64,000 nt of DNA from a virus (taxonomy: Duplodnaviria > Caudoviricetes): IMG/VR virus record IMGVR_UViG_3300028298_000007, positions 752 to 64,751 of that record, one strand, 5' to 3'. The notes beneath the pieces are model-generated. The model was not told the DNA's origin and searched no databases. It saw only the letters and a list, made by a program, of their open reading frames with translations. How positions within the stretch are numbered: position 1 is the first letter of the stretch; each line of letters begins with the position of its first letter. This document shows positions 2,075 through 61,382 of the stretch, piece by piece. The position numbers and the translations under genes are program-made.

Positions 2075-2524
2075 TATGAAAGCAAAAGATTGTATCAAAG
2101 CAAAGTGCGAGTATTTAGCCAAGAGAGTAATAAACGGAGAATTTATCTGCACAGATACAGGCGTTGTTACTGACCAGGTCTGTAACTGCGGAATAATCGA
2201 TGAGATGTATGCGAAGAAAGGAGGCAAATAATGCATCGCAGAGATTAGGAGTGTTTTTCCAGTTCATAGAAACTTACGCCTGCCCGATATTGGATATTTC
2301 TATTATCATTACGATAATTTGGGCGGTAAATAAATTAACAAAAAGAAGTGAACGGAAGGCGGTGATTTAATATGCGTTACCTATTATCTTTAATCGGATT
2401 TCCGGTTTGCTCGAGCTGTTCGCGCCGTAATTGTAAAGATTGCCCATTAGCAATAAGATAAGCCTTTATTGGCTACATCTTTAGAAAGGTTAATATGACT
2501 CAAGACATGTTAGAGTTCTTATTT

Positions 2525-2655
2525 CCAGAGAGTTACCGGGATTAAACGAAACATCGGAGATAATACTTGCACTTTGACCTTACCGAAGGTTATAAAAGGC
2601 AAGACACCTTTATCTCCGATGTCCGCTATTAAAGCGCTGATGAGTTTATCTCTGG
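2525..2655 (+). ncRNA. hammerhead ribozyme (type II), predicted cleavage after GUC at 2623
   Basis: Stem II TAAAC/GTTTA, GAAA, stem III CATCGGAGATAA/TTATCTCCGATG, TC, stem I CGCT/AGCG, CTGATGA core; stem II extended by CCAGAGA/TCTCTGG. Confidence 0.92.
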
Positions 2656-2686
2656 TCAGAAAACTTTTAAGAGAGGGGGTGAAAAG

Positions 2687-2878
2687 ATGAAAATCGTAAT
2701 CGGAGAAGGCAGATTAAAACTTTCTGCAAAGCAGGCCACAGACGGAGTAATCTTTTACAGGGTCTTAGCGCCTAACCTTAGAAGGATTATGCAGCATAAG
2801 AAAAGAGATTTATCTGTCGTAGGCACTTGGGTAGCTTACGAAGATATAATCGTCTGGTTTAAGAAAGGAGATTTATAA
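2687..2878 (+). CDS. hypothetical protein
   Basis: ORF with GGGGGTGA RBS; coupled to the next gene by TAATG. Confidence 0.6.
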   Translation: MKIVIGEGRLKLSAKQATDGVIFYRVLAPNLRRIMQHKKRDLSVVGTWVAYEDIIVWFKKGDL

Positions 2879-3216
2879 TGGAAAGAGAATATTTCCACGC
2901 GACAGTGCAAAGAGTTTCTATTGAAGCAAAAGAAGTCCGCGAAGAAAAAATCGCAAGAAGCGGTTTTCTTAATTTAAGAAAGACGATATTCGAGCAGATT
3001 CATTTTGAAGATGAGTATTTTATCTTCTGCAAACTCGACAGCACTAATGTCGTATTGAAGATCAAGACAACAAAAGAAATACTGGAACAGGCGAGAACAG
3101 GAGATTCAGTATCTGTTCATCTCAGATTTGATTTTGAATTTGCCTGTTATCACTTTATCAAAATTAAAGAAGAAGAAAAGGTTATTCAGGTAGAAAGGAA
3201 AATTGTATGCGAATAA
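2878..3216 (+). CDS. hypothetical protein
   Basis: ORF in a tightly packed early cluster; AAGGAG RBS. Confidence 0.6.
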   Translation: MEREYFHATVQRVSIEAKEVREEKIARSGFLNLRKTIFEQIHFEDEYFIFCKLDSTNVVLKIKTTKEILEQARTGDSVSVHLRFDFEFACYHFIKIKEEEKVIQVERKIVCE

Positions 3217-3443
3217 AACTTTTCGTAAAAGACAATAAGATTTGCTACTCCACAGGGAAGGGGAAGTGGACTGCGCTGCCAAGAGGTAGTGGCGATTTGA
3301 CTTACCAGTTATCTCCAGCTGAAACAATCTTAGTGGTAAAACATGGCTGGATTTACGCAGGACAGATCGAAGGCCGGGATATGTCCGGTATAGGCGGACT
3401 TAAAACAATCACAGAGGTGATGAAACATGGAAAAGCTAAATAG
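3207..3443 (+). CDS. hypothetical protein
   Basis: ORF overlapping the previous stop; AAAGGA RBS. Confidence 0.55.
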   Translation: MRIKLFVKDNKICYSTGKGKWTALPRGSGDLTYQLSPAETILVVKHGWIYAGQIEGRDMSGIGGLKTITEVMKHGKAK

Positions 3444-3538
3444 AGTTCAGATATACTTAAATTCTTTTGGCTACCCGAGATCTATTGTAAATCAATACAA
3501 AACAGGTTCAGATAATTACCGAGAGGAGGTGAAGATAA

Positions 3539-3721
3539 ATGGCGAAGAAAAAAGGTTACAAAATAACAGCAAAAAATGTTGAGTATCTTATTTCGCAGTA
3601 TATAAATGCTGACAGCGCCGAAGAAGCAAAGAGTATTTTCAAACAGGATTTTGAAAATGGTCAAATAGGTGTAGGTGGTTCAGAAGTCCAGTTTCAGGAA
3701 GTAACAATAGTTAGGAGGTAA
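3539..3721 (+). CDS. hypothetical protein
   Basis: GGAGGTGA RBS; 60 aa ORF. Confidence 0.6.
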   Translation: MAKKKGYKITAKNVEYLISQYINADSAEEAKSIFKQDFENGQIGVGGSEVQFQEVTIVRR

Positions 3722-3724
3722 AGA

Positions 3725-3994
3725 ATGTCTAAAATAACAGAAAAGCAAATCGGAGTTGTCGGTGTTGACAGCGGAACCTTGCTTCTTGGAGATCCTTGTT
3801 ACTGGTTATCTGATAAGGATTACGAAAAGGAAGTTTTGAACCCTCACTTCGATAGGTCAAGACAAATCTGCTACGACTTAGGGCACAAAGGTAAAGGCGT
3901 CCTGGTGTCAAGCGGATATGGAGACGGCTGTTATCCTGTTATCGCAAAGTTTCAAGATGGCAGAGTAAAAGAAGTTACAGTCAAATTCTTTTAA
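3725..3994 (+). CDS. DUF4241-like small phage protein
   Basis: VGVDSGTLLLGDP...SSGYGDGCYPV motif pattern. Confidence 0.6.
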   Translation: MSKITEKQIGVVGVDSGTLLLGDPCYWLSDKDYEKEVLNPHFDRSRQICYDLGHKGKGVLVSSGYGDGCYPVIAKFQDGRVKEVTVKFF

Positions 3995-4004
3995 GGAGGT
4001 TTAG

Positions 4005-4586
4005 ATGCCTAATTGGTGTGAAAATGATTTAAGAATTACAGGCTCAAAGAAAGAACTCAAGCGCTTTAAGGCCTTTGCCAAAGGAACAGAAGAAGATGAA
4101 TTATTGTCTTGTGAAAAATTTATTCCTTATCCGGATAAGTTTAAGAAACAAGACGAATTGGCAAATAAGAACGGAAAGTTAAGACAGGATTTAATTGATA
4201 AGTTGATTAAAAAAGGAACCCCTGAAGACAAAGCAAGAGAAAAAGCGTTTAAGGATTTTCCGGCTATCCCAGACGGATTTAATCAAGGCGGTTACGACTG
4301 GTGCGTAAAAAACTGGGGAACGAAGTGGGGCTTCTGCGATATTCATCTTGAAGAAGAAAACCTTAGCGATAAAGAAGATAAGTATAATGAATTTCTTTAT
4401 TCCTTTAACACTGCCTGGAGCCCGGCAACACCTGTTATACAGAAAATGGGGGAGATGTTTCCGCTGCTTGAATTTGATCTGCGCTATTTTGAACAAGGCG
4501 CTGGATTTAACGGAATTTTCTGGATGAAAGATGGTAAAGTAGAACAGGATAAGACAGGAGAGTATTTTGGTAATAGGGGAGGGTAA
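4005..4586 (+). CDS. YubB/DUF1281-like ferredoxin-fold protein
   Basis: MPNWCEN start, WCVKNWGTKW and FNTAWSP motifs. Confidence 0.75.
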   Translation: MPNWCENDLRITGSKKELKRFKAFAKGTEEDELLSCEKFIPYPDKFKKQDELANKNGKLRQDLIDKLIKKGTPEDKAREKAFKDFPAIPDGFNQGGYDWCVKNWGTKWGFCDIHLEEENLSDKEDKYNEFLYSFNTAWSPATPVIQKMGEMFPLLEFDLRYFEQGAGFNGIFWMKDGKVEQDKTGEYFGNRGG

Positions 4587-4687
4587 AATGTCGAGCGGAG
4601 ATTTAGGTTTGACTATTATATTATGTACACTTTTTATATGCATTGCGGTTATACGATATGCACATTGGAAATATGGAGGTCATTAAA

Positions 4688-4906
4688 ATGCCGAAATTCA
4701 AAGTTGTTATATCTTTGGGCGTCAATTCTTATATTATTGACGCTGAGAATAAAGATCAAGCAGTAGATAAGGCCGGTGAAGAAATGGTCAAGGAATTAGA
4801 GAACATCAAGTTAGAGAACTTTGTAGAAGTGTATGAGGCTACTGCTGAAGACATAGCAGAAATCGAAAAAGAGAAATCTGCTTTGGCTTCAGGAGAGCCT
4901 TCATAA
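4688..4906 (+). CDS. hypothetical protein
   Basis: ATG at 4688 with GGAGGT RBS (the ORF track starts further upstream). Confidence 0.55.
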   Translation: MPKFKVVISLGVNSYIIDAENKDQAVDKAGEEMVKELENIKLENFVEVYEATAEDIAEIEKEKSALASGEPS

Positions 4907-4966
4907 GCCGAAACGCCTGCGGGAAACCGCAGCGTCAGCCGTAAGATAAAGCGGCTCTGATGAGGC
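4907..4966 (+). ncRNA. hammerhead ribozyme (type II), predicted cleavage after GUC at 4936
   Basis: GCC-GAAA-CGCCTGCGG(GAAA)CCGCAGCG-TC-AGCCG(loop)CGGCT-CTGATGA-GGC. Confidence 0.92.
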
Positions 4967-5415
4967 AAAAGTATATCAGAATTATCTTGAGGCCAATAAC
5001 TTTTGAGAGGAGATTTAAATGAGATGGTATGAAATAGCAAAAAATCTTTCGCATAAAGAAAATTGGACAGAACAACTAATATATGTCCATAAGACAAGAT
5101 TAATTTTAGGATTTATCTTAGGAATTATATTAGGATATTGTTTAGGATTATTATTTTAATTTGAGAGGGGGTGAAGCATGAATAATGAGTTATTAAATCT
5201 CTTACGCAAACGCAGGTTAGCCGGCCAATGCATTATCTGCGGCCGCGAGATTTCGGATAAGAGTATCGTAATCAGTCATTCCGAACTCGGCGAGGTCAGG
5301 ATCTGCGAAGAAGATATCAAAACCGGAAGCAAGAGTTCAGGATAAGTAAAGGTGATTTAAGATTAAAATTATCTTTCGTTACAGCTCTATGCTAAACGGA
5401 GATAGAAAGGAGAAA

Positions 5416-5610
5416 ATGTATAAAACATTTATAAGAACCTGGTGGAAATTAAATCCAAAATGGCCTAACGGTTTAGAGCCGCATGCAGGGAGAAAGGTTT
5501 ATTGCAATACTTGCTCCACAGAAGAAGAGGCGCGGGCATGTTGTAAAGCATATAACTCTACTCACGAACCCGGGAGATTAAGCAAAAAAATGGAATACGA
5601 AAGAGTATAG
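5416..5610 (+). CDS. hypothetical protein
   Basis: ATG at 5416 with AAAGGAG RBS. Confidence 0.6.
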   Translation: MYKTFIRTWWKLNPKWPNGLEPHAGRKVYCNTCSTEEEARACCKAYNSTHEPGRLSKKMEYERV

Positions 5611-5618
5611 GAGGTAAT

Positions 5619-6254
5619 ATGGGTTACACTCATTATTGGCGCAGAGAAAAAGAAATAGAGCAAAGTAAGTTCAATGATATACTCATTGACTTTAAGAAAG
5701 TCTTGCCGGAGATAGAGAAGGCCGGAGTTCAATTAGCTGATGGGCGTGGAGAGGAAACACCTATTTTTAACTCTGAAGAAATTATATTTAACGGCAAAGC
5801 AAAATGCGGACACAAAGTCGATGAAAGAATAATAATACCTTGGCCTACGAAGAACGCCGGCGGCGTAGCTAATAACTGGAAAGAAGACGCTAAAAAGGGA
5901 AATTGGTTTGCTGGAGCGGAGATAGAAAAAAGGGTCTGTAACGGCGATTGCAGTTATGAAACTTTTAGCTTCCCGCGAGTATTTAAGCCCGAAAGCTGGT
6001 CAAGGCCGGAAGAAGGATTATATTTTGAGTTTTGCAAGACCGCCTTTAGGCCCTATGATTTTGCTGTAATTGCTTTTTTAATTATAGCGAAACATCACCT
6101 ACAAGAAAAAATCAAGGTATCAAGCGACGGAGAAGATCAACATTGGTTTGATGGAAAGATGCTCTGTCAAATGATATTAGGCTATGGTTTTGAGTACAGG
6201 ATTGATAAAGACGGAGAACTGATATTAATAAAGGAGGCCACATGCAAGAAATAA
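5619..6254 (+). CDS. conserved hypothetical phage protein (MGYTHYW-type)
   Basis: MGYTHYW start, ETF, FCKTAFRPYD and VSSDG motifs; GGAGGT RBS. Confidence 0.7.
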   Translation: MGYTHYWRREKEIEQSKFNDILIDFKKVLPEIEKAGVQLADGRGEETPIFNSEEIIFNGKAKCGHKVDERIIIPWPTKNAGGVANNWKEDAKKGNWFAGAEIEKRVCNGDCSYETFSFPRVFKPESWSRPEEGLYFEFCKTAFRPYDFAVIAFLIIAKHHLQEKIKVSSDGEDQHWFDGKMLCQMILGYGFEYRIDKDGELILIKEATCKK

Positions 6255-6397
6255 AAGTAGGGGATAAATTAACAATCAAGGTTGAGGTAAGAAAAATTAT
6301 CGAAGATAAAACCGGTAAGCACTACGATGTTTTTCCAGAAGGTTGTGAATCTTTTAGCAATACTATGATTGTTGAACCACAACATATTATTGAATAA

Positions 6398-6464
6398 TCT
6401 CGAAACTGGGGCTAACCTGATAGAAACGCCCCAGTCTTATTGTTAATCAATAACTGATGAGAGA
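6398..6464 (+). ncRNA. hammerhead ribozyme (type II), predicted cleavage after GUC at 6436
   Basis: TCTC-GAAA-CTGGGGC(loop)GCCCCAG-TC-TTATTG(TTAAT)CAATAA-CTGATGA-GAGA. Confidence 0.92.
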
Positions 6465-6473
6465 GGATATAAT

Positions 6474-6650
6474 ATGCAAGAAATACTGAAACTAAGTTTA
6501 AAGAAGGTCATTCTTAATTATCTTGGATTAAGATTTTCTAGACAAAGAGAACCGTTATCTTCATTCAAAGTTTTCGTAATCGTAAAAAAAGAGGTAGTAA
6601 GTAGAGCAAATGAAAGTTTCGTAATTCATGAATGGAAGGAGGTGATATAG
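6474..6650 (+). CDS. hypothetical protein (58 aa, not in ORF track)
   Basis: ATG 6474 to TAG 6650; its RBS (GAGAGGA) overlaps hammerhead stem II. Confidence 0.45.
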   Translation: MQEILKLSLKKVILNYLGLRFSRQREPLSSFKVFVIVKKEVVSRANESFVIHEWKEVI

Positions 6651-7368: not shown

Positions 7369-7530
7369 ATGGCCGCGGAAAAGAAAGAAGAGATAGTAAA
7401 GAAATTGACTAAGAAATTCTATATGAGTATAACTAAGGACTGTATGGAATATGCGCCTAAGATCGAAGACGCATTTGAAATAAGAAAAGATATTATCAAC
7501 AATCTTAAAAAAGTAATTGATAATTCTTAA
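7369..7530 (+). CDS. hypothetical protein
   Basis: ATG 7369 with GGGAGGT RBS. Confidence 0.5.
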   Translation: MAAEKKEEIVKKLTKKFYMSITKDCMEYAPKIEDAFEIRKDIINNLKKVIDNS

Positions 7531-7730: not shown

Positions 7731-9308
7731 ATGCAATTACAAACATTAAAAATAGACCAGATCGCCATAGGCGATAATATAAGGAAAGACATTACCAAAG
7801 ACTCCGTAGCCAGTCTAATCGAATCGATTAAGGACAAAGGAATATTGCAGCCGTTATTAGTCAGGGTTAACGGTGGTAAGTTCGACCTGCTGGATGGCTA
7901 TCGCAGGATCAACGCGGCCAAGTTTGCTGAATTAAAAGAAGTCCCGGCAATTATTATCGAAGCCGATAAAGCTGAGCGCGTTGAGTATCAGTTAGTGGCA
8001 AATTTGCAACGCAAGGACCTAAACGCAATTGACGAAGCCTTAGCTTATAAGGCATTAGGCGATGATTTTAAAGTAAAAGACATTATGGTAATCACCGGCC
8101 GGCCGGAATACAGGATCCGCAGGATATTAGCGCTGCTTACATTGTGCGAAGAAGTACGGAACATGATTAAGAATAATGAGGTTTCCGAAGATCATGGTTT
8201 CGTATTGACAAGGATATCCAGTCCGAAATTCCAAAAAGCCTTAGCCAATGACATCAAGAAATACCGGTATTCTCCAAGCCGCGCTGAAAACGAGTTAAGC
8301 CATTATTCCCAGCGACTTGAGACCGCTTGCTTTGATAAAACGCAATGCAAGGCCTGCACGTTTAACGGCAACCTGATGAAGGATCTTTTTGATAAAGAAA
8401 ATTCGATGTCCGGACAATGCCTGAACGCCGATTGTTATTTCAAGAAAATCGCCGAGTTCCAAAAAGTAAAAGAAGCCGAAATAAAGAAGCAGGGGAAGAA
8501 AGTAATAGTGGTCAAGGAAGAGCCTTCTTATGGGACTAAGGAATATGAGGCAATGAAAGAACTGGTTGATTTTACCGGTTACGAAGCGCAGGGTTTTGAC
8601 AAAGAACAATTCAATACCGAATGTACCAAGACCTGCCCGACCTTCGCGTTTATCATAGGTCCTGCCGGCCAGGTTAAACCGGTTTGCTTAAATGCTGATT
8701 GTTTCAAACGCGCCTTACGCAAAGCCAAAGCAACGGAAAGAAAAGGAACGGCTATGCCTAAGACAGGCGATCCTGAGAAAGACGCCTCTATTCAATACGA
8801 GGCCAGGCAGAAAGAAAACCGCGTTGATTTCTTTAAGCGTGATTTCTTCATTAAGGGCCTGAAAGAAAACGCTAAAGATATCCAACTTAACAGGATATTG
8901 CTGCATCAGTTATTCAGCTTGGAAAGCAGTAACGGCGAAACAATTTCAGAATTGCTCAAAGCAACTAAGAAGCAGCCGAATTACATGATGAGGAATTTTG
9001 AGCGCCTTAATGAATTAAACAACGCTAAACTGATTGAATTGATTAAAATCCTTATTCTTAGCCACCTAAACGGTTATTCTACAATTGAATTGCAAAAATT
9101 AGGCGAAGAAGCTGGTCTGGATTTAGCTAAGTTTATAATTACCAAAGAATACCTGGAGAAATTCTCTAAAGCAGGTTTGCATAAGTTAGCCAACGAATTG
9201 AAATTAAAAGTAGGCAGCCTAGTCTGGAAGGATAAGAAAGATGATATAATCAAAATCATGCTGGCTTCCGGTTGTAAAGGTAAAGTGCCTAAGGAGATGT
9301 TGAAATGA
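7731..9308 (+). CDS. parB: ParB/Spo0J-family protein with long Cys-containing C-terminal extension
   Basis: SIKDKGILQPLLVR, DGYRR Arg patch, ANLQRKDLNAIDEA, then an HTH; ATG 7731 after AAGGAG. Confidence 0.85.
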   Translation: MQLQTLKIDQIAIGDNIRKDITKDSVASLIESIKDKGILQPLLVRVNGGKFDLLDGYRRINAAKFAELKEVPAIIIEADKAERVEYQLVANLQRKDLNAIDEALAYKALGDDFKVKDIMVITGRPEYRIRRILALLTLCEEVRNMIKNNEVSEDHGFVLTRISSPKFQKALANDIKKYRYSPSRAENELSHYSQRLETACFDKTQCKACTFNGNLMKDLFDKENSMSGQCLNADCYFKKIAEFQKVKEAEIKKQGKKVIVVKEEPSYGTKEYEAMKELVDFTGYEAQGFDKEQFNTECTKTCPTFAFIIGPAGQVKPVCLNADCFKRALRKAKATERKGTAMPKTGDPEKDASIQYEARQKENRVDFFKRDFFIKGLKENAKDIQLNRILLHQLFSLESSNGETISELLKATKKQPNYMMRNFERLNELNNAKLIELIKILILSHLNGYSTIELQKLGEEAGLDLAKFIITKEYLEKFSKAGLHKLANELKLKVGSLVWKDKKDDIIKIMLASGCKGKVPKEMLK

Positions 9309-15313: not shown

Positions 15314-16042
15314 ATGGAAGCGAAAGATAAAAAAGATTTAGCAAAAACAGGTGGGCCTTTACGCGTTTCCGGAAATAAAAATCTACCGGCCGGTTTTGAC
15401 GCTGTTGAGGAAGGCGATATTAAGATGTCGCGGTTAGCAATAGGACAAGGATTATCGCCTGTTGTAATCGAAGGCAAAGCAAAGATGGGGGATATCTACC
15501 AAACTATTACCAATGAAGTCTTCGGAGAATCGGTTGAGTTCATTCCGTTATTCATGTTCAAGACCCGAGCTCAATTTGAAACCGAAAAAGGTTTAGTAAT
15601 GATGTCCAGGGATAACGAAACCGTAACAATGGCCACCGCAGAATATGAGCAATATCTCGGTAAGCCGGTCGAGGAAGTTCCGGGATCTGCTTGGGTAGGC
15701 AAAGAGCCGCCGAAGTTCAGCGAAGTTTTCAATTTCCCTGTTCTTCTGGTTTCTCGTTTACTGCAATTCCCGATAGCATTGTCTTTAATGAAAACCGCTA
15801 TAAAACCGGCCAAAGAATTCCTTTCGATGGCGCGGTATTCCGGTGAAGATATGTTCGCCCGCGTTTACACTATTAAATCGGAAATCGTTAAAGGCACAAA
15901 AGGAACTTACGCACTCCCTGTAATTGAATTTTCGCGTAGATGCAGCGATGAAGAATACGCAAGAGCCAAAGCGGTATTCGATAAACTTTACCGCCGTCAG
16001 AAAGATATAGAAGTAGAGTTAGAAGAAGATAAAACCGATTAA
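15314..16042 (+). CDS. putative ssDNA-binding/annealing protein
   Basis: Position in replication module, RLAIGQGLSP motif and acidic C-terminal tail (EVELEEDKTD). Confidence 0.5.
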   Translation: MEAKDKKDLAKTGGPLRVSGNKNLPAGFDAVEEGDIKMSRLAIGQGLSPVVIEGKAKMGDIYQTITNEVFGESVEFIPLFMFKTRAQFETEKGLVMMSRDNETVTMATAEYEQYLGKPVEEVPGSAWVGKEPPKFSEVFNFPVLLVSRLLQFPIALSLMKTAIKPAKEFLSMARYSGEDMFARVYTIKSEIVKGTKGTYALPVIEFSRRCSDEEYARAKAVFDKLYRRQKDIEVELEEDKTD

Positions 16043-16048
16043 CAATCC

Positions 16049-16126
16049 GCGAGGGTAGTGAAGCGGCCCATCACGCCAGTTACCGCATATAACTGGAGAT
16101 CGCTGGTTCGAATCCAGCCCCTCGCT
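16049..16126 (+). tRNA. atypical tRNA (Cys-like GCA/U73) with a 4-nt-longer anticodon arm
   Basis: Acceptor GCGAGGG/CCCTCGC, D stem GTGA/TCAC, T arm GCTGG-TTCGAAT-CCAGC, anticodon arm CCAGTTA-CCGCATA-TAACTGG; no encoded CCA. Confidence 0.8.
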
Positions 16127-16131
16127 ATAAA

Positions 16132-16289
16132 TTATGTTCCCTAAGACAGGAATTTACCCTTCAGGTGGAAACGGAGCGTTCATACCGCTAGCGGCGCCTA
16201 CCGAGCTGCCAATAAGCTCCTGTCGCGCCTCCTTTTGGCCTCGGAAGTTGTTTTCCAGTTTCTAGCTTCCGCTGTCTTGGGGAATATAA
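16132..16289 (+). ncRNA. candidate structured non-coding RNA (about 158 nt)
   Basis: 18-bp closing stem 16132-16149/16272-16289 with two G-U pairs; internal helices GGAGC/GCTCC, CCGCTAGCGG and CGGAAGTTG/TAGCTTCCG; GC-rich relative to flanks. Confidence 0.6.
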
Positions 16290-16306
16290 TAAAGGAGTTT
16301 TTTAAA

Positions 16307-16549
16307 ATGATTGATACTAAAGTAGCATTGTTAGAATTCATTGCTGATAATGCAGGGATCAATATAGACATAAAAGAAGATGATACTCTAAAAGAAGATT
16401 TGAGTTTCGATGAATTAGACATAGTAGAAATGGTAATGGCCTTAGAGGAAGAATTTAATATAGAAATAACGGATGAAGAATCGGAAAAATTTATTTCAAT
16501 AAAGGATATAATAGATTATCTCGAAGACAAAAATATAATCTTAAATTAA
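16307..16549 (+). CDS. acyl carrier protein homolog lacking the phosphopantetheine Ser (DSL to DEL)
   Basis: [32 protein letters not shown] resembles Acp[21 protein letters not shown]; ATG 16307 after AAAGGAG. Confidence 0.85.
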
Positions 16550-36040: not shown

Positions 36041-36487
36041 TTAAATAGTACGGTCTTCAATTATTATATTAATCTGAACTAAATGACAAAGCACATTCCC
36101 AAACATAACAGTGGAAAATTCACCTGTTATCGGAATATGCACTATTTTTGCTGTACCGCTAAGCGTAGGATCATTGACAAAGTTAGAACATATGGTTTCA
36201 ACTAAATCTTGGAATGTTTTTTCAGAAGTCAATGCTTCATAAACAGAATAAAATCCGCGGATTATAAATTCATGCGTATTATCTTCTACACTACCAGAAC
36301 CTCCCCTGGCCACAAGAGCAAACTTTTTTCTTTCAATATCCCAGGTATTTACCTTAGAGTCCTTAATAAACAGATCTTTATAGGTAGATAGATCGCTGGA
36401 ATACCGCTTATAATCATAAACGTTTTCCACGCCTGATATTGCTTCAAGTTTTGTTTTAATTTTTGTACGGATACTGCTTAATGACAT
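36041..36487 (-). CDS. tail terminator-like protein
   Basis: IRTKIKTKL start, DPTLSG motif; head-tail region. Confidence 0.65.
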   Translation of the reverse strand: MSLSSIRTKIKTKLEAISGVENVYDYKRYSSDLSTYKDLFIKDSKVNTWDIERKKFALVARGGSGSVEDNTHEFIIRGFYSVYEALTSEKTFQDLVETICSNFVNDPTLSGTAKIVHIPITGEFSTVMFGNVLCHLVQINIIIEDRTI

Positions 36488-36581
36488 TAATTTTAAGGCA
36501 GGATTAGATAGAGGGGTATTGTAAAGAAAATACCTATCTTTTCTATCTCCGCCTTCTCCGAACTCTTTGTTCTGGGGTTAA

Positions 36582-37310
36582 TTACCGATTTCTGAGTGGG
36601 TGCGTTAGCATATCTTCAGACCATTGATATATTATATCAAGATCCTTAATTGCTACACCAGCTGAAGCAGCTGCAGCACCTTTAGATCCTTCCCCTAGGC
36701 CCATCAACGAATTATACATGGCCAGTTGTTCTTTGGCCAAATTCGTATAAAGGTCAGATTTGCGCTGATAATCAATTACATCAGCCTCTAGGGTAGAATC
36801 TGTACTCTGTGAAAATTTAGCCGCGAGAGCCCAGAAACAAAGAGAAGCAGCTAGTGTTACCACCGCTTCCATATCATTATCGTCTATAGTACAAGTTGTA
36901 TCATCAAATGTATGCGGTAATGTATATTCAAACCTTGCTTTTTTACCGCTTACAGGAATAAACGTCAAAAAACGTAAGTAAGTAGTCGTAACCGCTGGAG
37001 TGCCTACTAACTTTTTATAGAATTTCCAGTCGATCGATTCTAAATACTGCGGATCCTGATAATCATCGGCCGGGTATTCTATATCTCCTTCGATATAAGA
37101 AAAATTATCTACCCAGCCAGTCGGCATGGCAAAATCATAAGCTATACCATCCCCGGTTAATTCATGGATTAATTTTCTCGGCCTATCTTTAGAAAAAATC
37201 AATACGGCGCGGGAAAGAAGACGATCTTTATCGTCTGGCTGAAGTTTTTCCGCGTCGTCTTGCAGTAATGTTTCTAACCTGCTTAGATAATCTTCTTTAG
37301 TATTAGCCAT
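36582..37310 (-). CDS. head-tail adaptor-like protein
   Basis: Position after head genes; IEYP and LAAS motifs. Confidence 0.55.
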   Translation of the reverse strand: MANTKEDYLSRLETLLQDDAEKLQPDDKDRLLSRAVLIFSKDRPRKLIHELTGDGIAYDFAMPTGWVDNFSYIEGDIEYPADDYQDPQYLESIDWKFYKKLVGTPAVTTTYLRFLTFIPVSGKKARFEYTLPHTFDDTTCTIDDNDMEAVVTLAASLCFWALAAKFSQSTDSTLEADVIDYQRKSDLYTNLAKEQLAMYNSLMGLGEGSKGAAAASAGVAIKDLDIIYQWSEDMLTHPLRNR

Positions 37311-51472: not shown

Positions 51473-52306
51473 TCATTTTTTAAGTAACCATTCTGTTATT
51501 GAACCATCTTGATATTCTTTTATATTAATTCTTTTAATAGGTAATTTTGTAAAACATTCTGCTTTAAAATCTCGTTCTAATAAACAAATTCTTTCTGGCG
51601 GTAGTATGCTTAATGCCGCATGAAAATTTCCAGAAACACAACATATGAAATATGAACAATTTTGGATAATTCCTAAAAGTGTAGAAACTTTTGGAGGGAT
51701 ATCTCTAATATGCCTATCAATGAAATCATATCGTTCGTTAACAGGATTATGAAACACATGTTTCATTAAAGTTTCTATAGGTATATATCCCGCTTCTTTT
51801 GTTTCCTGCCATACTTTTTTTGCTACATCATAAGGAACATTAGCACTATCTGGTAAACAAGTAATCTGGAAATGAAATCCTACTAATCTATTTTTACCTT
51901 GCGTTAATTTCTTGTGGCCGTTTACTGGATCGATCCCGAGTTCATGTACGCAACAATATTCACCTTTAGTCAATTCAATCTGGCCTTCGGACATTGGAAA
52001 ATCTATATCCGCGATAATATCATACATGCTTTCCGGTAGGTCATTAAAAAAAGAACCGTCGATTAACCTTACGCATGTATCAGTTAAATCGGCGGTTACT
52101 TCTTGGAAACCCAAACCTTTTTGGACTGCCAGATCAAATATAACATCAGGAAACTGTTTTGTCAATGCCTCAAATGGATTTAAGAACATCACGAGATCTC
52201 CTAGGCCATGCCAAAATACAAGTAGCACGCGATTAGGTTTTAATTTTTCGATATATTGCGATAGTTTAGGTTTATCACATTCCCATAATCTTTGCAGTCT
52301 TAGCAT
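51473..52306 (-). CDS. GT9-like (heptosyltransferase-fold) glycosyltransferase
   Basis: HGLGDLVM and C-terminal FICCVSGNFHAA (DSG..H-type) motifs. Confidence 0.7.
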   Translation of the reverse strand: MLRLQRLWECDKPKLSQYIEKLKPNRVLLVFWHGLGDLVMFLNPFEALTKQFPDVIFDLAVQKGLGFQEVTADLTDTCVRLIDGSFFNDLPESMYDIIADIDFPMSEGQIELTKGEYCCVHELGIDPVNGHKKLTQGKNRLVGFHFQITCLPDSANVPYDVAKKVWQETKEAGYIPIETLMKHVFHNPVNERYDFIDRHIRDIPPKVSTLLGIIQNCSYFICCVSGNFHAALSILPPERICLLERDFKAECFTKLPIKRINIKEYQDGSITEWLLKK

Positions 52307-52539
52307 TTTTTCTCCTTTAGTTTTTTAATCTGGTTTTTTCCAGACTTAATTAAAAATTTAAAAGTCCTATCAACCTTTAAAGAATTGATGAAATCTACAT
52401 CCACAAACCCCCCGTAAGTAACTCCTTTATATACTATGGCAAATGCAATACAATCAACATCTGGCAATAGCATATTATTTTTACCGCTAGCTGTTTCTGT
52501 ATGGAAAGGATTAAGTAATGACGGTATTTTATTCTTCAT
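52300..52539 (-). CDS. hypothetical protein
   Basis: Fills the gap between GT genes with overlapping start and stop. Confidence 0.45.
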   Translation of the reverse strand: MKNKIPSLLNPFHTETASGKNNMLLPDVDCIAFAIVYKGVTYGGFVDVDFINSLKVDRTFKFLIKSGKNQIKKLKEKKC

Positions 52540-53515: not shown

Positions 53516-54675
53516 TATAAATCTCCTTTACATTTAAACATTAAATAATGGCTATTAGTTTCCCGTTCAGGATCGCCGCTCTCGCCTAAACATTCTATCT
53601 GGCTAAAACCGGCCTTCTCTAATAATTCTCTATGCGGACCTTCTTTACCTCCTAGGTTAGTTTCAAAATATAATATCTTGCATTTAGTCCTTAACATTTT
53701 TAAATATTCAAACCTATCTCCTTTTAAATGTCCTAATACAGCGCAGAAAAATATGATGTCAAAAGTATTATTCTTTAAACATATACCATCTTCAATATCA
53801 TTAGGTAAGCAATGAATATCTGATCCTTCAGCATAAGCTAAAGCAGCGACTAAATCTATTAATCTATGAGTATTATGATTTTGTTTTTCTATCGCTAATA
53901 CGTATTTGGCGCCGCGCCTAGCCGCTTCCCGAGCCAGCATACCGCAAGAACAGCCTAAATCGGCGACAATTAGTCCAGTAAAGTCTTCAGGAAAGAATTG
54001 TAGCCGTTTATTGCTTCTTGGCCCTTTACGTATCAATTTACCTTTGCAATAGATATCCTGGTAACTATCCCAGTTGAAATCTATCTCTCTTTGGATGATA
54101 TACTCTAAAGTAATGCCGCGTTCATTTAGATATCCTTGCATAAACGCATCTTTATATTTTTTATTCATTTTATAAGGAAGCAAAATATATCTTACGATTT
54201 CTTCTTCCGGAAAATCAGTATAATAAAGTTTAGAGAAATCACAAAGCATTACTCGGCCGTTATCTGCTTTTATAACATTACCATATTGTAAATCATGACT
54301 GGCAATGCTTAAACCTTTTGCATTTCTGATATTATGCATTTTGGCCATATAAATTCCCCATTTATAAAAATCATTGGCTATGGCCGCTTCTTCTTGAAGA
54401 ATAAAATCCGCGATTTCTTTGGCCGATTTATTTTGTATTTCTAATTCTACTTTTTTATTCAAGAAGTCCTGCTGAATATGCAAAAAATCCTTGCCTTCAA
54501 CCCACTCGCTTTCAATGGTAATGATTTCAGGTCCGGTTATGATATTCAATATCTTAGGAATTTCTAAGCCTTGATCCTGTAAAAACTGTCTTATGGATAT
54601 GGTATAGTCATTAATAAGAAGTTCTTTTATCTTCTTATTACCATCCCTATATGCTTTAAAACCGTAATGTTCCAT
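53515..54675 (-). CDS. kinase (APH-like) plus SAM-dependent methyltransferase fusion
   Basis: PKIL, EWVEG, HDLQYGNVI and CDFS kinase motifs; DLGCSCG methyltransferase motif. Confidence 0.8.
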   Translation of the reverse strand: MEHYGFKAYRDGNKKIKELLINDYTISIRQFLQDQGLEIPKILNIITGPEIITIESEWVEGKDFLHIQQDFLNKKVELEIQNKSAKEIADFILQEEAAIANDFYKWGIYMAKMHNIRNAKGLSIASHDLQYGNVIKADNGRVMLCDFSKLYYTDFPEEEIVRYILLPYKMNKKYKDAFMQGYLNERGITLEYIIQREIDFNWDSYQDIYCKGKLIRKGPRSNKRLQFFPEDFTGLIVADLGCSCGMLAREAARRGAKYVLAIEKQNHNTHRLIDLVAALAYAEGSDIHCLPNDIEDGICLKNNTFDIIFFCAVLGHLKGDRFEYLKMLRTKCKILYFETNLGGKEGPHRELLEKAGFSQIECLGESGDPERETNSHYLMFKCKGDL

Positions 54676-55218
54676 TTATTTTATGATATACCAGGTAAAA
54701 TCATCTCCGGTTATAATCCTATCGTCAAACCTTTCTTTAATAATTTCGGTAAGTGGGTGGCATTGTAAATAATCATGCCCACCAAATATCCCTCCCGGCT
54801 TGACTAACGGATAATATAATTCCAAATCTCTGGTGATCCCACTCTTGCTATGATCTCCGTCTATCCAGACAAAATCAAATCCTTCTTTAGTAAACCTATC
54901 AGAAACATCAGAACTTTTATGCTGAATAATTATTACTCTATTTTTATACTCAGGTACCATAAGTCGTTTTATAGCATGCGATTTATTATTATCATGATAT
55001 GATTGCGGTTGGCCGGCCTCATACGGCTCATCACCGGGAGGAACTTGATCTCCTTCGCGGTGTTCCCAAGGATCGATTGTATATAGGAAACAATTAGGGA
55101 GTGCCGATAATATCGCCACAGTTAAATCGGCGCATTTAGTGCCGATTTCAATCCCCGTAACCCTTACATCCTTAAAATGACGCTTGAATAAATCTTGGAC
55201 TACTGCTGATTGCATCAT
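54676..55218 (-). CDS. class I SAM methyltransferase (Methyltransf_24-like)
   Basis: IEIG, IDPW, DFVWIDGDH and KPGGIFGGHDY motifs. Confidence 0.85.
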   Translation of the reverse strand: MMQSAVVQDLFKRHFKDVRVTGIEIGTKCADLTVAILSALPNCFLYTIDPWEHREGDQVPPGDEPYEAGQPQSYHDNNKSHAIKRLMVPEYKNRVIIIQHKSSDVSDRFTKEGFDFVWIDGDHSKSGITRDLELYYPLVKPGGIFGGHDYLQCHPLTEIIKERFDDRIITGDDFTWYIIK

Positions 55219-55766
55219 AGTAAACCTCTGTTTTTATTTAGCCATTCAGCTAAATATACCTCATTTTCTATATGGACATGATTATCACTTAAACTCATAT
55301 TCAAAAATCCTTCACTATCGGCGTATTTATCGTAAACATCTATGAAAACAAACTCGGATTCACTTAATTTCTTATTCATATATTTGACATAATCCAACCG
55401 TTCGATATCCGATCCTAAGAATGGAAATCCAGCGTTTTCAGAAGCTAATGAGCGTCGCGGAGGCGGTACTACATTATAAATCAGGATATTCTTATTTACC
55501 GCAGCATTTAACCTTATCGTATCTAAATAATTCTTTACCAATATATCTATTGTGTTCTGCCAGGGCTGGTATTTATGAACATGGCACCTGCAATCAATCT
55601 CACCCCAACAAAAAACAATACCAGCATCGATTGGTATATCTTTAACCAATATCGGTTTAGATAACCCTAAACTATGCATTGTCATAGGCCCGCAGGTCCT
55701 AGTGATAACTCCGGGTATTTTAAGCCATGCATGCCAGCAATGACTGTCGCCTATGGTATATATCAT
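55215..55766 (-). CDS. SGNH-fold esterase/acyltransferase-like protein
   Basis: IGDSH, GEIDCR and DNHVH (DxxH) motifs. Confidence 0.7.
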   Translation of the reverse strand: MIYTIGDSHCWHAWLKIPGVITRTCGPMTMHSLGLSKPILVKDIPIDAGIVFCWGEIDCRCHVHKYQPWQNTIDILVKNYLDTIRLNAAVNKNILIYNVVPPPRRSLASENAGFPFLGSDIERLDYVKYMNKKLSESEFVFIDVYDKYADSEGFLNMSLSDNHVHIENEVYLAEWLNKNRGLL

Positions 55767-56731
55767 TTTGGCCTTTTTATAAAACCTTTTTCATAAACAT
55801 CTGAACTAATTTCTGGTATCATATTATTGAATTTTTCCATAAAAGATTTAACTAAATTATAATTATATTCTATCTTATCAATAACATCTTTACTGTTTTT
55901 ATGTATATCAAGTTCTGAAGCGATCCGGCCTTCCTGCCACCAGCGACAATGCCAACCGTAAAGTTGCTGACCTATACTATTAAATATTGTATCTCCAGTG
56001 GGACCTATCCGCAATAAAGTTTCAGCCCAAATAGAATCGCATACCCATAGATACCTATCTAGACCTAAAATTCTATCCTTAGGAACATGTTTACAGATAG
56101 ACCTATTATGACAGATCATCGGATGCGTGGCTTCTCCTTTAAACGGGTCTTCTGTCTGGAAATTGACTAAATCAAAAAAAACTTCCGAATATTGATATCC
56201 AGAAAAGTTTATAGAATCAAAAGCGGCGCACATCGACCTATCCCAAATTCCTTTATCATTACCGAAAGGCATATCTTGAACCTTAGCAAAGCTGAATGGA
56301 AATTCACCGGAAATAAATATACCGGATTCGGATATCTTAAAATAAATATCTAAATTCGCAAAAACAAACTGATCTGCCTGCAGCAAACAAACAGATTTAT
56401 ACTTACCTTCTTTTAATAATTTTCGCGCCAATAAAGAAACAGGAAACCATGGATCAAGCATAGGATATGCTTGATTACTTCTTTTATCTACAAAACTATT
56501 TTTATATTCAGATATTAACGTATCTAATCTATACCAATTTACATTGAATGGAAATGCTTCTGTGATTCTTTCTCTATGTCTAGGATCCCATAGATCATCA
56601 TGGACTATCTCCCAATCGGCATTAGTTTTGAAATAATTCTGTGCGTTCATAGTTGAAATTAATCCAAAACTATAAGCGTTAGAAGAACCAACTATAAATG
56701 CGTAATCGCTTTTAGGTTTCATTCTTTCCAA
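55763..56731 (-). CDS. second GT8-like glycosyltransferase (paralog of 52529..53515)
   Basis: Shared KS.YAF.V start; CLLQADQF at the DxD position; similar C-terminus. Confidence 0.6.
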   Translation of the reverse strand: MERMKPKSDYAFIVGSSNAYSFGLISTMNAQNYFKTNADWEIVHDDLWDPRHRERITEAFPFNVNWYRLDTLISEYKNSFVDKRSNQAYPMLDPWFPVSLLARKLLKEGKYKSVCLLQADQFVFANLDIYFKISESGIFISGEFPFSFAKVQDMPFGNDKGIWDRSMCAAFDSINFSGYQYSEVFFDLVNFQTEDPFKGEATHPMICHNRSICKHVPKDRILGLDRYLWVCDSIWAETLLRIGPTGDTIFNSIGQQLYGWHCRWWQEGRIASELDIHKNSKDVIDKIEYNYNLVKSFMEKFNNMIPEISSDVYEKGFIKRPK

Positions 56732-57396
56732 TACCTCTTTTCCGAATCATAACCGTCCATCTTACGCAAAATCGCTAATCCATAAGCGGAAGACCATATC
56801 CTGCACCACTCGAAATTATAATGATTATTCAAAAAAGGAATTATTTTATGGAATGCTTCCTCTGAAGGCCCATAAACATCATGCATAATAAAATATCCCT
56901 GGCCGTTGCCTTTAATCCTAGGATATAAGACCTCGAGCTCATGCATAACGTGTTTGGTATCGTGGGCGCCGTCTTGGAAGATCAAATCAAATTCGATATC
57001 CTTAAATGTTTCAGCCGTAAGATTAATCGAATCCATATTGATTATTGTCGCCGGCAGGCCATCTAATCTTTTTTTAGCTAAATCAGTCTGCACTATATCA
57101 ATCCCATAATACTGGCCGTTATCTATCTGATATCTTACGCCGTTATCCTTGACCGCATTAGCTAGATACCATGCGGTATAGCACTCAGCATGGCCTATTT
57201 CCAAAATCTTATGCGCTTCTATTGCCCTAGCAAGAAAATAAAGCATAGGGCCGAAGAAAGTTATCGTAGAATTGATATTAATAAAATGCGCTGAATGGAT
57301 CAACTCCATAATCGGTGCTGGATGTTGCGTAAAATATTCAACATCTTTTGGGTGTTCGATATAGCGGTTAAAATAGGTAACTAATTTCTTATCCAT
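56719..57396 (-). CDS. class I SAM methyltransferase (Methyltransf_24-like)
   Basis: LEIG, GIDI, FDLIFQDGAH and MHD motifs. Confidence 0.82.
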   Translation of the reverse strand: MDKKLVTYFNRYIEHPKDVEYFTQHPAPIMELIHSAHFININSTITFFGPMLYFLARAIEAHKILEIGHAECYTAWYLANAVKDNGVRYQIDNGQYYGIDIVQTDLAKKRLDGLPATIINMDSINLTAETFKDIEFDLIFQDGAHDTKHVMHELEVLYPRIKGNGQGYFIMHDVYGPSEEAFHKIIPFLNNHYNFEWCRIWSSAYGLAILRKMDGYDSEKRYWKE

Positions 57397-57546
57397 TGAA
57401 TTCCATTCTTTCTTGTATTGTAGGCAGTCTTTCCCGGTCGCATTTCTTATGGCACTCTTGGTTTATACATACCATAACGCTGTATCTAGACATATTATGT
57501 GTCCTTTGTTCAACTTTTATTTTCTGTTTAGGACAATCGTCTTCCA

Positions 57547-57875
57547 TTAGAAATATCCGCTTCCATTAGTAGAATTATCTGTATAATTCTGACTTGTGTA
57601 AGTCCAGCCATTCCCATAAGTTCTTATTACTATATGAAATATAGAGGCCTCTAGCGGACTTAACAATGCTTTCAAATGATTATCGTATTCATCTTTATCA
57701 TTTACCAATATATCGCAAGCGGCATTTATTAACTTCATCAATTCCTGATTCCGCCTCTGTCAGGATGATGGATTAACGCTAATTCTCTGCGCTTCTTATT
57801 GACATCTTGTTTGCTGCAAAAATTAGGTAATCCAAGTTTTTCATATAAATTTACGTTAGGAAATCTTTTTGGCAA
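57547..57875 (-). pseudogene. DnaJ J-domain protein interrupted by a 1-nt frameshift
   Basis: NLYEKLGL...KKRRELALIHHPDRGG, then in the shifted frame NQELMKLINAACDIL; break at 57749-57750. Confidence 0.75.
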
Positions 57876-59601
57876 CGCCTATTCCCTTTCCGTCATGATT
57901 TTCCATAAATGTAAAATTAGCGGCATTGATCTTCTTGAATTCGTCCCAGACATCCTGCAGGGAACAACCGTCAGGGGTCAAATCATCGAAAACAATAAAA
58001 CCGCCGATATCTAATATATTTACCGCATTAGCAAGATCCTGCCTGGCATAGTCTTTATCGTGGTTTCCGTCAACTAAAATGTAATCAAACTTATAATCCG
58101 GAAATTTCTGGGCGTAGGCCGGTATCTGCGCTAAGGAATCTCCTACCAAGAATTGAACTTTATCCACCGGAAGATTTAAATATTTAAGATTATTGAACAC
58201 TACCTCAGGTGTGGCCGGAGCCTCGGTAAAGGTATCGCAAAGAACTATACGCTCAATGATATTTGTATCTATAAAAGCGGATAGCAACTGGCAAATCGAT
58301 ATCCCTGTTCGGCAGCCGATTTCCAAAATTCTCTTTGGCTCAATAACTGAACCTAAGAACCAAGCAAAGTGATAAGTATCCATAAATTTATCTTTATTTT
58401 TATTGTAATGCCAAAGATAGGCCTCAAGATACTTATCTTCTGGATTTATCTGTTTTAATATACGCATAGTATTAAATATCGCGGAGTCAGTCTGGGGTTG
58501 ATGATAAAAATCACCCAATTCTTCAGGTATATTCGCAGTCCCTTTCAATTCATCTTTCTTTGGTGTTACTTCCTTATTTAAATTTAGAATAAAAGGCCCG
58601 CCGGTTTTATTTTTATCTTCCATTTTATCTTCTCCTTTTAAGTTAAGTATAACTGGTTTTTCATTTTCATATCTTAATACTCCGCCTAAATAATAAATTT
58701 CAACAGCCCTGGCAATATCTTCGGGCCGAATTAACTCCATACACATCGGAGTTTTATTCTCGGCCTTAAAAGTGCATTCCTCTATCCTCGACCTCCAGCA
58801 CCCGTCATATACAGCGCATTTAAGCGCGCCATTAGTATAGAGGAAGCGGTGATCCGGATTTAACTGCCATCTTACGCCTTCCCGAGCTCCCGAAACAACG
58901 ACGCAGGGCTTGGATAACGCGGCCATGATAACCATCTGCATGGATACCGGGCATATGGCGCCCTCGGCATATTTCGACAACAAGAAAAGCTGCCTGAGGT
59001 TAGTTTTACCTCTTAAATCGATTACGCCGTCCAATAGCGGGTGGGTATGAGCTGAATGGCCTACCTGAACGAATTTAATCTTGTCTTTAAGCAAATCCAC
59101 AACCTGCTGATAATACGGATAGTATTTTAAAGTATAATCATTCTTTACGCCGGCATTTATTATCCAGTATTTGCCCTCTACCTGTCTAGGCAGCGACAGT
59201 TCTTCTTTAGAGAAGAAGATATCCGGTTTCATCCCGGTGCGAGGTATATCGATACCTAACTTCTGCGCTAAGAACATCCTATGCCCATCAGCGAAAGGCA
59301 GGCCCGACATACCAGAGATATGGATCAAAGGATAGTGCGAAATTATATATTTAGTGTCCCCGACTAAAACAGGAGGCAAGCTTTCGTTCTTCTTCAGGTC
59401 CTCAATCGCTTTATTCGCGGCCGCAGGATCAGGAACATCGATATGCGTGATATAAGGGCTATTCTGGTAAATCTCATTGCAGGGAGTCCTGACATCGGTA
59501 ATGTATTTACCCGGATGAGCCTTATGTAAAGAGCGCAGCGCAATTGACATTATCAGTATATCCCCGGGACTTAAATCATTAACTAAGACGATTTTTTCCA
59601 T
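57856..59601 (-). CDS. GT9-like glycosyltransferase plus Methyltransf_24 fusion
   Basis: SPGDIL, DLRGKTNLRQL and AALSKPCVV GT9 motifs; LEIGCRTG, DYILVDGNH and GGFIVFDD methyltransferase motifs. Confidence 0.85.
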   Translation of the reverse strand: MEKIVLVNDLSPGDILIMSIALRSLHKAHPGKYITDVRTPCNEIYQNSPYITHIDVPDPAAANKAIEDLKKNESLPPVLVGDTKYIISHYPLIHISGMSGLPFADGHRMFLAQKLGIDIPRTGMKPDIFFSKEELSLPRQVEGKYWIINAGVKNDYTLKYYPYYQQVVDLLKDKIKFVQVGHSAHTHPLLDGVIDLRGKTNLRQLFLLSKYAEGAICPVSMQMVIMAALSKPCVVVSGAREGVRWQLNPDHRFLYTNGALKCAVYDGCWRSRIEECTFKAENKTPMCMELIRPEDIARAVEIYYLGGVLRYENEKPVILNLKGEDKMEDKNKTGGPFILNLNKEVTPKKDELKGTANIPEELGDFYHQPQTDSAIFNTMRILKQINPEDKYLEAYLWHYNKNKDKFMDTYHFAWFLGSVIEPKRILEIGCRTGISICQLLSAFIDTNIIERIVLCDTFTEAPATPEVVFNNLKYLNLPVDKVQFLVGDSLAQIPAYAQKFPDYKFDYILVDGNHDKDYARQDLANAVNILDIGGFIVFDDLTPDGCSLQDVWDEFKKINAANFTFMENHDGKGIGVAKKIS

Positions 59602-61377: not shown

Positions 61378-61382
61378 CCTTT

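Follow-up and report, generated by a model that had tools for sequence, protein, structure and literature searches.

Three candidate self-cleaving type II hammerheads behind stop codons in the putative early gene array of an uncultured lake phage

The DNA analysed here, called the window throughout, is a stretch of 64,000 nucleotides that comprises bases 752-64751 of the IMG/VR record IMGVR_UViG_3300028298_000007 (64,751 bases, CheckV completeness 100%) and, as judged from PHROGs and Pfam assignments and from the DNA sequencing runs carrying it, belongs to an uncultured tailed phage from lake water. We found in it three elements, HH1, HH2 and HH3, which carry a complete type II hammerhead core on the + strand, lie behind the stop codons of open reading frames (ORFs) and are located within 4 kb of one another (span 3.9 kb). 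The reading that we prefer, with a probability of roughly 0.7, is that they are functional type II hammerheads whose constitutive self-cleavage splits a polycistronic early/replication transcript behind three stop codons. Comparison of the sequences with those of four related phage records indicates that the hammerhead folds are under selection and are neither chance motifs nor plain hairpins, since copies at the same places retain the core and show compensatory substitutions in stems I and III. This agrees with the proposal of the first-pass annotation that the fold is being maintained.

Structure of the three elements and chance controls

The strict descriptor used to define the elements demanded exact CUGANGA and GAAA motifs, closure by an A15.1-U16.1 pair, a base other than G at position H17 and contiguous stems I, II and III of at least 4, 3 and 4 pairs, respectively. 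Applied to both strands of the 64 kb, its type II form returned exactly three sites, all on the + strand, and these are the very places at which the first-pass annotation had called full type II hammerheads (Table 1). The order of parts is the same in each: the 5' strand of stem II, GAAA, the stem III hairpin, a U and the C after which cleavage is predicted, the stem I hairpin, CUGAUGA and the 3' strand of stem II. All three thus have the type II topology, in which stem II is open and loops close off both stem I and stem III. They agree in CUGAUGA at C3-A9, GAA at G12-A14, the A15.1-U16.1 pair, C at H17 and the pair G10.1-C11.1, and they differ at N1.1-N2.1, which is C-G in HH1, A-U in HH2 and U-A in HH3. 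No stem sequence is common to the three elements.

The minimum-energy folds of HH1, HH2 and HH3 were well below those of shuffled sequences (z-scores of -5.9, -3.3 and -3.3, respectively), and for HH2 the minimum-energy fold was the three-way junction exactly. The reverse strands fold about equally well, but without the core. In every copy, stem III is the longest and most stable helix, with energies from -10.6 to -31.2 kcal/mol. Loop I of HH2 (4942-4949) is complementary over 8 bases to 4982-4989 (+), a possible pseudoknot partner 15 nt past stem II, and this match was equalled by 2 of 500 shuffles of the tail. At the same offset in homologs of HH2, the record G005 allows 6 bp (35/500 shuffles) and G003 five A-U pairs (382/500, not significant), and G002 allows none.

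As a separate observation, stem III of HH3 (6405-6447 +, and likewise 8467-8500 of the related locus L075) is a G+C-rich hairpin followed by the U-rich strand of stem I and thus resembles an intrinsic terminator; a terminator scan did not return it, its loop in the window being longer than 8 nt. Given this likeness, termination and ribozyme cleavage would leave nearly the same 3' end.

The number of descriptor matches expected by chance was estimated from 300 dinucleotide shuffles of both strands, which gave a mean of 0.05 strict type II matches, at least one match in 14 shuffles and three matches in none. As a control with real DNA, the descriptors were run on about 556 kb from 55 unrelated phage loci, which code for distant homologs of two hammerhead-flanked ORFs, those of 193 and 211 aa. 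These contained six matches, two of type II and four of type I, with spans of 121-239 nt; both type II matches were the same sequence of 239-nt span found twice, located inside an ORF, and the three matches that were inspected all lay inside ORFs. All descriptor matches in these 55 loci were long-looped, and none was a compact hammerhead. When descriptors for types I and III were added, the window itself gave one extra type I match of 260 nt (36364-36623, - strand), which we take as a chance match.

Table 1 Hammerheads, micro-ORF and predicted cleavage products in the window. Positions are those of the window.
Feature	Position	Strand	Parts	Stems, basis or remarks
HH1, type II	2543-2648 (contiguous, stem II to stem II); 2538-2652 with possible extension	+	stem II 2543-2547/2644-2648; GAAA at 2548 (GAA 2548-2550); stem III 2551-2622; C17 2623, predicted cleavage 2623/2624; stem I 2624-2636; CUGAUGA 2637-2643	stems I/II/III 4/5/13 bp; stem III with 13 closing pairs and large branched loop; descriptor and pair table
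HH2, type II	4907-4966	+	stem II 4907-4909/4964-4966; GAAA at 4910 (GAA 4910-4912); stem III 4913-4935; C17 4936, predicted cleavage 4936/4937; stem I 4937-4956; CUGAUGA 4957-4963	stem I 6 bp, stem II 3 bp, stem III 4 contiguous pairs plus 5 pairs past one unpaired base (fold); GAAA loop on stem III
HH3, type II	6398-6464	+	stem II 6398-6401/6461-6464; GAAA at 6402 (GAA 6402-6404); stem III 6405-6435; C17 6436, predicted cleavage 6436/6437; stem I 6437-6453; CUGAUGA 6454-6460	stems I/II/III 6/4/8 bp
Micro-ORF, 16 codons, MTQDMLEFLFPESYRD	2495-2545	+		own AGAAAGG ribosome-binding site
Predicted product of 2313 nt	2624-4936	+	predicted ends: 5'-OH with HH1 stem I hairpin; HH2 stem III hairpin with 2',3'-cyclic phosphate	about nine small ORFs, including DUF4241-like and DUF1281_C-like (Pfam)
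Predicted product of 1500 nt	4937-6436	+		five ORFs of 46, 55, 73, 211 and 51 aa

Copies in related phages and their link to stop codons

Related records were identified by means of the ParB-like protein and the helicase, yielding G001 (78% identity in ParB), G002 (68% in ParB), G003 (69% in the helicase) and G004 (52% in the helicase), and a fifth record, G005, came from a scan for the conserved end motifs of HH1. The hammerhead comparison set consisted of the window (G000), G001, G002, G003 and G005, which have the gene order around the hammerheads in common; G004 has neither homologs of the small ORFs nor a compact hammerhead and is therefore uninformative. The scan for hammerheads covered all of G000, G002, G003 and G004, G001 short of the final 523 bases, and G005 over its first 9 kb. 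In total, 12 hammerheads were found at three syntenic slots in the five records and no other compact ones in the parts scanned, the leftover matches having long loops and spans of 138-151 nt. An energy-based scan of the records with a cut-off of -2.0 kcal/mol skipped HH3 of the window on account of its A-U-rich stem I (-1.7 kcal/mol), which the descriptor based on pair counts does find. The end motifs of HH1 alone are matched at 29 places of IMG/VR; of these, three fold as compact hammerheads (those of G001, G002 and G005), three fold marginally and 23 fail to fold.

Slot 1, behind the 16-codon ORF, holds a hammerhead in 5/5 records, slot 2 in 4/5 (the homologs of HH2 being those of G002, as a variant, G003 and G005) and slot 3 in 3/5 (G000, G003 and G005). 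At slot 2, G001 has tightly packed ORFs with no gap. Slot 3 is defined by the ORF that follows it, which is 48% identical between G000 and G001; the preceding ORF is linked by weak chained similarity (E values of 1e-4 and 2e-5), and its G000 and G002 versions do not match each other directly. In G001, slot 3 is occupied by a tRNA-like gene (positions 7370-7451 of locus L060, + strand) with canonical acceptor, D and T arms and an oversized anticodon loop, for which ARAGORN calls either a 4-base anticodon or a 3-nt insert. This gene reached 40.8 bits with the Rfam tRNA model in a search of the small region and was missed in a search of 43 kb.

The core is identical in 11 of the 12 copies, the exception being HH2 of G002. 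The MAFFT alignment (A4) of HH3 with its two homologs, those of G003 and G005, had standard pairs in 52 of 52 pair cells, and five pairs had changed on both sides. When the 3' partners were slid by 1-3 columns as a control, 37-54% of the cells were paired and 0-2 pairs had changed on both sides; the observed covariation values were reached by 2 of 500 shuffles, which, with three sequences only, is indicative rather than strong. The covariance model of the HH3 family (R1), run over the window and the loci L060, L061, L075 and L118, retrieved only its own three members besides two matches at E 0.82 that we regard as noise; it is too sequence-specific to reach HH1 or HH2.

Because MAFFT misaligned the stems of the window trio and of the HH1 and HH2 families, the pairs of HH1 (five copies) and HH2 (four copies) were tabulated by their distance from the core. 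In stem III of the five HH1 copies, position 2 is C-G, U-A or U-G, position 3 A-U, G-C or G-U, position 4 U-A, G-C or C-G, position 5 C-G or U-A and position 6 G-C, G-U or A-U. Stem I of HH1 has five different sequences with 3-6 pairs, all of them paired. In stem II, where UAAAC pairs with GUUUA, there is hardly any variation, which is probably due to the stop codon contained in its 5' strand. In the HH2 family, positions 3, 4 and 6 of stem I and position 3 of stem II vary and yet remain paired.

In all 12 copies, the preceding ORF ends with TAA, and the end of this stop codon lies between -2 and +6 nt from the first base of stem II, whereas the distance to the start codon that follows varies more (about 9-100 nt, the choice of downstream starts for HH2 being unreliable). 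In the window, HH2 begins right after the TAA of ORF 4643-4906 and HH3 right after that of ORF 6242-6397. The GAGAGG ribosome-binding site of ORF 6474-6650 takes in the 3' strand of HH3 stem II. HH1 goes further in that the TAA of the 16-codon micro-ORF (2543-2545) supplies the three bases with which the 5' strand of stem II opens. The micro-ORF is present in 5/5 related records, with the stop codon inside stem II in each of them. In the six pairwise comparisons of the four copies of equal length, 7-14 differences fell on codon position 3 versus 2-6 on position 2, and since the differences are mostly at third codon positions, the micro-ORF is probably translated.

The first-pass annotation had described all three elements as intergenic. 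This holds for HH1 only in part, as bases 2525-2545 of the element as it was then drawn lie inside the conserved micro-ORF. The outer helix then assigned to HH1 (2525-2531/2649-2655) competes with a closer extension of stem II seen by eye, in which 2538-2541, within the two codons before the micro-ORF stop, can pair with 2649-2652, just past the 3' strand, across a bulged U2542; the relatives seem able to form this extension too. Just before the micro-ORF we noted a further ORF of 29 aa (2372-2461, + strand) with four cysteines in two CxxC pairs, the C-terminal codons of which are recognisable in G001, G002, G003 and G005. With these two ORFs, what had been taken as a 316-nt intergenic region is mostly coding.

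Proposed processing of the transcript and alternative readings

The + strand of the window carries, from about 1.2 to 24.6 kb, an array of many small ORFs together with genes for a ParB-like protein, an RNase H-like protein, an SNF2 helicase, an AEP primase, DNA methylases, a radical SAM protein and an HNH nuclease, and the - strand carries, from 25.4 kb onward, genes for terminase, portal, head protease/capsid and tail proteins (PHROGs and Pfam assignments). The ORFs of the + strand array are tightly packed, with overlaps or gaps of a few bases. This layout puts the three hammerheads on the sense strand of an early/replication array. The label of an early operon, used in the first-pass annotation, fits the small ORFs and the genes for the ParB-like protein, SNF2 helicase, primase and methylases, and is plausible on the basis of this gene content.

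From the published behaviour of the clustered prophage hammerheads (PMC3088659) and those of D. vulgaris (PMC8782182), as these papers describe it, we infer self-cleavage and mRNA processing. Each element would be fully transcribed from the + strand and then fold, with its two ends closing stem II and with stems I and III as hairpins. The RNA would cut its own backbone 3' of C2623, C4936 and C6436, for which no host nuclease would be needed. The upstream message would then have at its end the hairpin of stem III, long and stable and bearing a 2',3'-cyclic phosphate, and, the ribozyme starting at the TAA of the preceding ORF, would retain its stop codon. The downstream message would carry a 5'-OH and, ahead of its ribosome-binding site, the hairpin of stem I at its start. 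Stem II, with only 3-5 pairs, would dissociate after cleavage. In this way, one long transcript would become separate messages, the stability and translation of which would be independent of their neighbours. The sizes of 2313 and 1500 nt given earlier for the two inner pieces follow correctly from the cleavage sites. A tRNA inside an operon is excised by RNase P and RNase Z, and the tRNA-like gene that takes the place of HH3 in G001 would therefore fit a processing role, with the limit that this concerns one slot in one relative.

Several observations speak against the proposed self-cleavage and processing. None of the three window copies reaches the threshold of the curated Rfam models, and of six copies tested only one was listed at all. 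The check with Rfam models that had been proposed for the three elements thus does not confirm them at these thresholds. In gathering mode, Rfam listed nothing in the whole window, a result that carries little weight because the same run also missed the tRNA-Cys gene (51.9 bits versus a gathering score of 29). In a permissive run, HH2 alone of the three was listed, aligned end to end with Hammerhead_II at 29.3 bits (E 0.072, gathering score 37). Even in Rfam searches of small regions HH1 and HH3 were not listed as type II, HH1 giving only a type III alignment of 14.6 bits in a different register, and HH1 of G001 as well as HH1 and HH2 of G002 were not listed at E values up to 1. As Rfam membership is not reached, the case rests on the descriptor, the statistics and the comparative data. 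According to the account of Perreault et al. (PMC3088659), tertiary contacts between loops and stems matter for speed at physiological Mg2+ concentrations, and the majority of type II hammerheads have a pseudoknot of at least 4 pairs between loop I and bases just past stem II. Contacts from loop I to stem II or to the tail were no better than in shuffles for HH1 and HH3.

The relatives supply further such points. G001 lacks both HH2 and HH3, and slots 2 and 3 are thus dispensable in some relatives. In HH2 of G002 an additional U separates A9 from G10.1, a C.U mismatch at 15.2/16.2 lies beside the core, and position 17 is an A. At slot 3, G002 has only a 9-bp hairpin (positions 8552-8590 of locus L061, + strand) with neither stem I nor CUGAUGA; preceded by the same four bases as in HH3 stem II and by a mutated GAAA, it looks like the remnant of a hammerhead. 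As all 12 copies come from three slots, they represent at most three independent origins. Finally, the search of sequencing runs described below returned no RNA run carrying the phage, and both transcription and cleavage stand as predictions.

Among the alternatives, it is hardly credible that the elements are core motifs placed by chance on ordinary hairpins, for instance those of terminators or RNase III sites. The stable folding of the reverse strands, the unmet Rfam thresholds and the terminator-like look of HH3 stem III with its U-rich stretch, absent though it is from the terminator scan, would suit such an origin, but three matches never arose in the shuffles, the core motifs occur on the + strand only, and the homologs keep the core and covary. 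We also consider it quite improbable that the hammerheads are decaying or selfish passengers that arrived with mobile cassettes of small genes, bring the phage no benefit and cleave only incidentally. Their presence and absence among relatives at slots 2 and 3, the apparent decay products in G002 (the core insertion in HH2 and the hairpin at slot 3), the poor conservation of the neighbouring small ORFs and the 55 loci that have distant homologs of two flanked ORFs without a compact hammerhead are all in keeping with passengers. Such elements would not, however, be expected to keep three helices by compensation and an invariant core next to flanking proteins that are only 52-79% identical, a pattern that points to purifying selection, and HH1 is retained in 5/5 records.

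Two of the alternatives accept the ribozymes and assign them a different use. In one, which we regard as very improbable, the pieces of 2313 and 1500 nt would be joined by a host ligase of the RtcB type into circular mRNAs or spliced RNAs; of these, the first-pass annotation had suggested ligated circular mRNAs. It is established that the end chemistry produced by hammerheads suits RtcB substrates, and the idea of circles was also raised for the clustered prophage hammerheads (PMC3088659), but that paper, in its passages on these clusters, reports that neither circular nor spliced products were detected. Moreover, Pfam revealed no RNA ligase, RtcB or polynucleotide kinase among 97 ORFs of the window (eight large ORFs outside the Pfam scan bear the PHROGs names tail, head, portal, terminase or methyltransferase), the three ribozymes have no stems in common, and, with just 1-2 pairs of stem II possible between one ribozyme's 5' half and its predecessor's 3' half, no hammerhead could be rebuilt across a junction. 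The circles thus find no backing here. In the other, which is rather improbable, a ribosome terminating at the abutting stop codon would control cleavage: positioned on the TAA, it would mask GAAA together with the stem II 5' strand and the beginning of stem III, so that the ribozyme could fold only if the upstream ORF (the micro-ORF in the case of HH1) is untranslated, and unwinding would aid the release of products. The TAA abutting 12/12 copies next to a looser downstream spacer, the stop inside HH1 stem II in 5/5 records and the coding-type substitution pattern of the micro-ORF would be explained by such gating; on the other hand, with genes packed this tightly an inserted element would adjoin a stop codon anyway, the slots amount to only three independent cases, and we found no publication on such a coupling, a negative that itself has a thin basis. 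A wider version, unlikely but somewhat less so, regards the slots as punctuation marks in which hammerhead, tRNA-like gene and bare hairpin may stand in for one another, with the hammerheads coupled to translation termination. If this were true, the terminating ribosome would decide when stem II forms and would help the products to separate, and the micro-ORF of HH1 would be a sensor determining what amount of downstream early message is released by cleavage.

Source phage, known systems and significance

Six DNA runs, all of them lake-water metagenomes, carry all or part of the stretch. Contigs from four of these runs (X3-X6) have the sequence of the window apart from a single G>T at 3263 in X3, and the hammerheads are free of variants; being identical, these contigs offer no strain diversity from which comparative information could be drawn. 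A megablast search of the INPHARED phages gave no match to the window. Among species genomes, a search with a ParB profile gave only a partial match of 31% in a metagenome-assembled genome of the Prevotellaceae and thus neither a prophage relative nor a clue to the host, and among metagenome contigs the same profile retrieved two relatives already found and short fragments. Promoter and terminator scans of the window gave counts at the level of shuffles and did not delimit the transcription unit.

Further features were noted in passing. The tRNA-Cys gene (16049-16126, + strand) lies inside the + strand array and begins 7 nt past the stop of ORF 15314-16042, and an acyl-carrier-like PP-binding ORF is located at 16235-16546 (+). 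On the - strand there is an unusual run of ORFs resembling SAM-dependent methyltransferases (53518-60379 and 61042-62770), six of which match Methyltransf_24/23/25/3, followed by a GroES-like Cpn10, a serine recombinase and a PAPS-reductase-like ORF. A weak Rfam match to PreQ1 (52311-52349, - strand; 22.9 bits versus a threshold of 39) stands directly before the start of ORF 51476-52306; judged against the consensus it is probably not a riboswitch, as it consists of a plain hairpin of 5 bp, the loop of which is all A, and a tail rich in A.

The arrangement has its parallels among known processing signals. In T7 early mRNA, RNase III cuts double-stranded intercistronic sites and leaves a 3' hairpin on the upstream message; the likeness is one of function and not of membership, since in T7 a host protein cuts, whereas here the RNA would cut itself and leave a 5'-OH and a cyclic phosphate. 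In mitochondria, tRNA genes inside operons act as processing signals, the so-called tRNA punctuation, and theta ribozymes, which are hepatitis delta virus (HDV)-like, stand beside phage tRNAs and serve their maturation. At slot 3 of G001, RNase P and RNase Z would cut at the same place as the hammerhead in the window, an equivalence that we infer for this one slot. In viroid and retrozyme units the junction rebuilds the ribozyme, whereas here neighbouring halves share only the 1-2 stem II pairs mentioned above.

The closest match is provided by the clustered prophage hammerheads of Perreault et al. 2011 (PMC3088659), several of which, including type II, are described as lying close together on the coding strand, where they flank single genes or short blocks of phage genes and cleave in vitro; a triple arrangement flanking ardA in A. 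tumefaciens cleaves in E. coli. The clustering is found here as well, with three copies in 3.9 kb flanking blocks of about nine and five small ORFs, and the proposals made for the prophage clusters, gene-length mRNAs or possibly circles, are the same. Unlike those clusters, as far as their description in that paper goes, the present one belongs to a free metagenomic lake phage, is below threshold in Rfam and has a TAA abutting all copies, and its cleavage is predicted. With the Rfam family Hammerhead_II (RF02276) the three elements have the topology and the core in common, HH2 aligning over its full length; they differ from it in a much longer stem III (8-14 closing pairs, loops of up to about 60 nt), and the pseudoknot of the family is not evident. 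Three type II hammerheads near hypothetical and phage-like genes of D. vulgaris, studied by cyPhyRNA-seq, are described as cleaving in the cell (PMC8782182); these occupy three separate chromosomal places, whereas the present three stand in one array and their cleavage is predicted. A hammerhead variant of the haloviruses HF1/HF2 likewise lies in the early region of a lytic virus, just before an ORF in a polycistronic transcript, and a mapped 5' end is given as at most 3 nt from its cleavage site; it differs from the window in that only one copy is present, with a variant core, and the host is an archaeal halophile (PMC3088659).

Type II hammerheads, their abundance in phages, their clustering and the readings as processing sites or circles have been in print since 2011, in the passages of PMC3088659 cited here. 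The new details are that every copy abuts a TAA, that HH1 overlaps a conserved micro-ORF of 16 codons and that a tRNA-like gene occupies slot 3 in G001. We found no publications on the abutment of stop codons, the overlap of micro-ORF and stem II or the alternation at slots, judging mostly by titles and the openings of abstracts, and the supplementary alignments of the 2011 paper may already contain similar cases.

The locus leaves the known kind unchanged, as clustered phage hammerheads and their likely processing role are part of the 2011 description (PMC3088659). The curated Rfam models miss divergent and well-supported phage copies such as these, and phage hammerheads are therefore probably under-counted. 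The purpose of phage hammerheads needs more work according to a statement in a 2019 review (PMC6765202), and for this the present phage group offers a natural comparison, in which the same slots carry a ribozyme, a variant core, a tRNA-like gene, a hairpin only or nothing.

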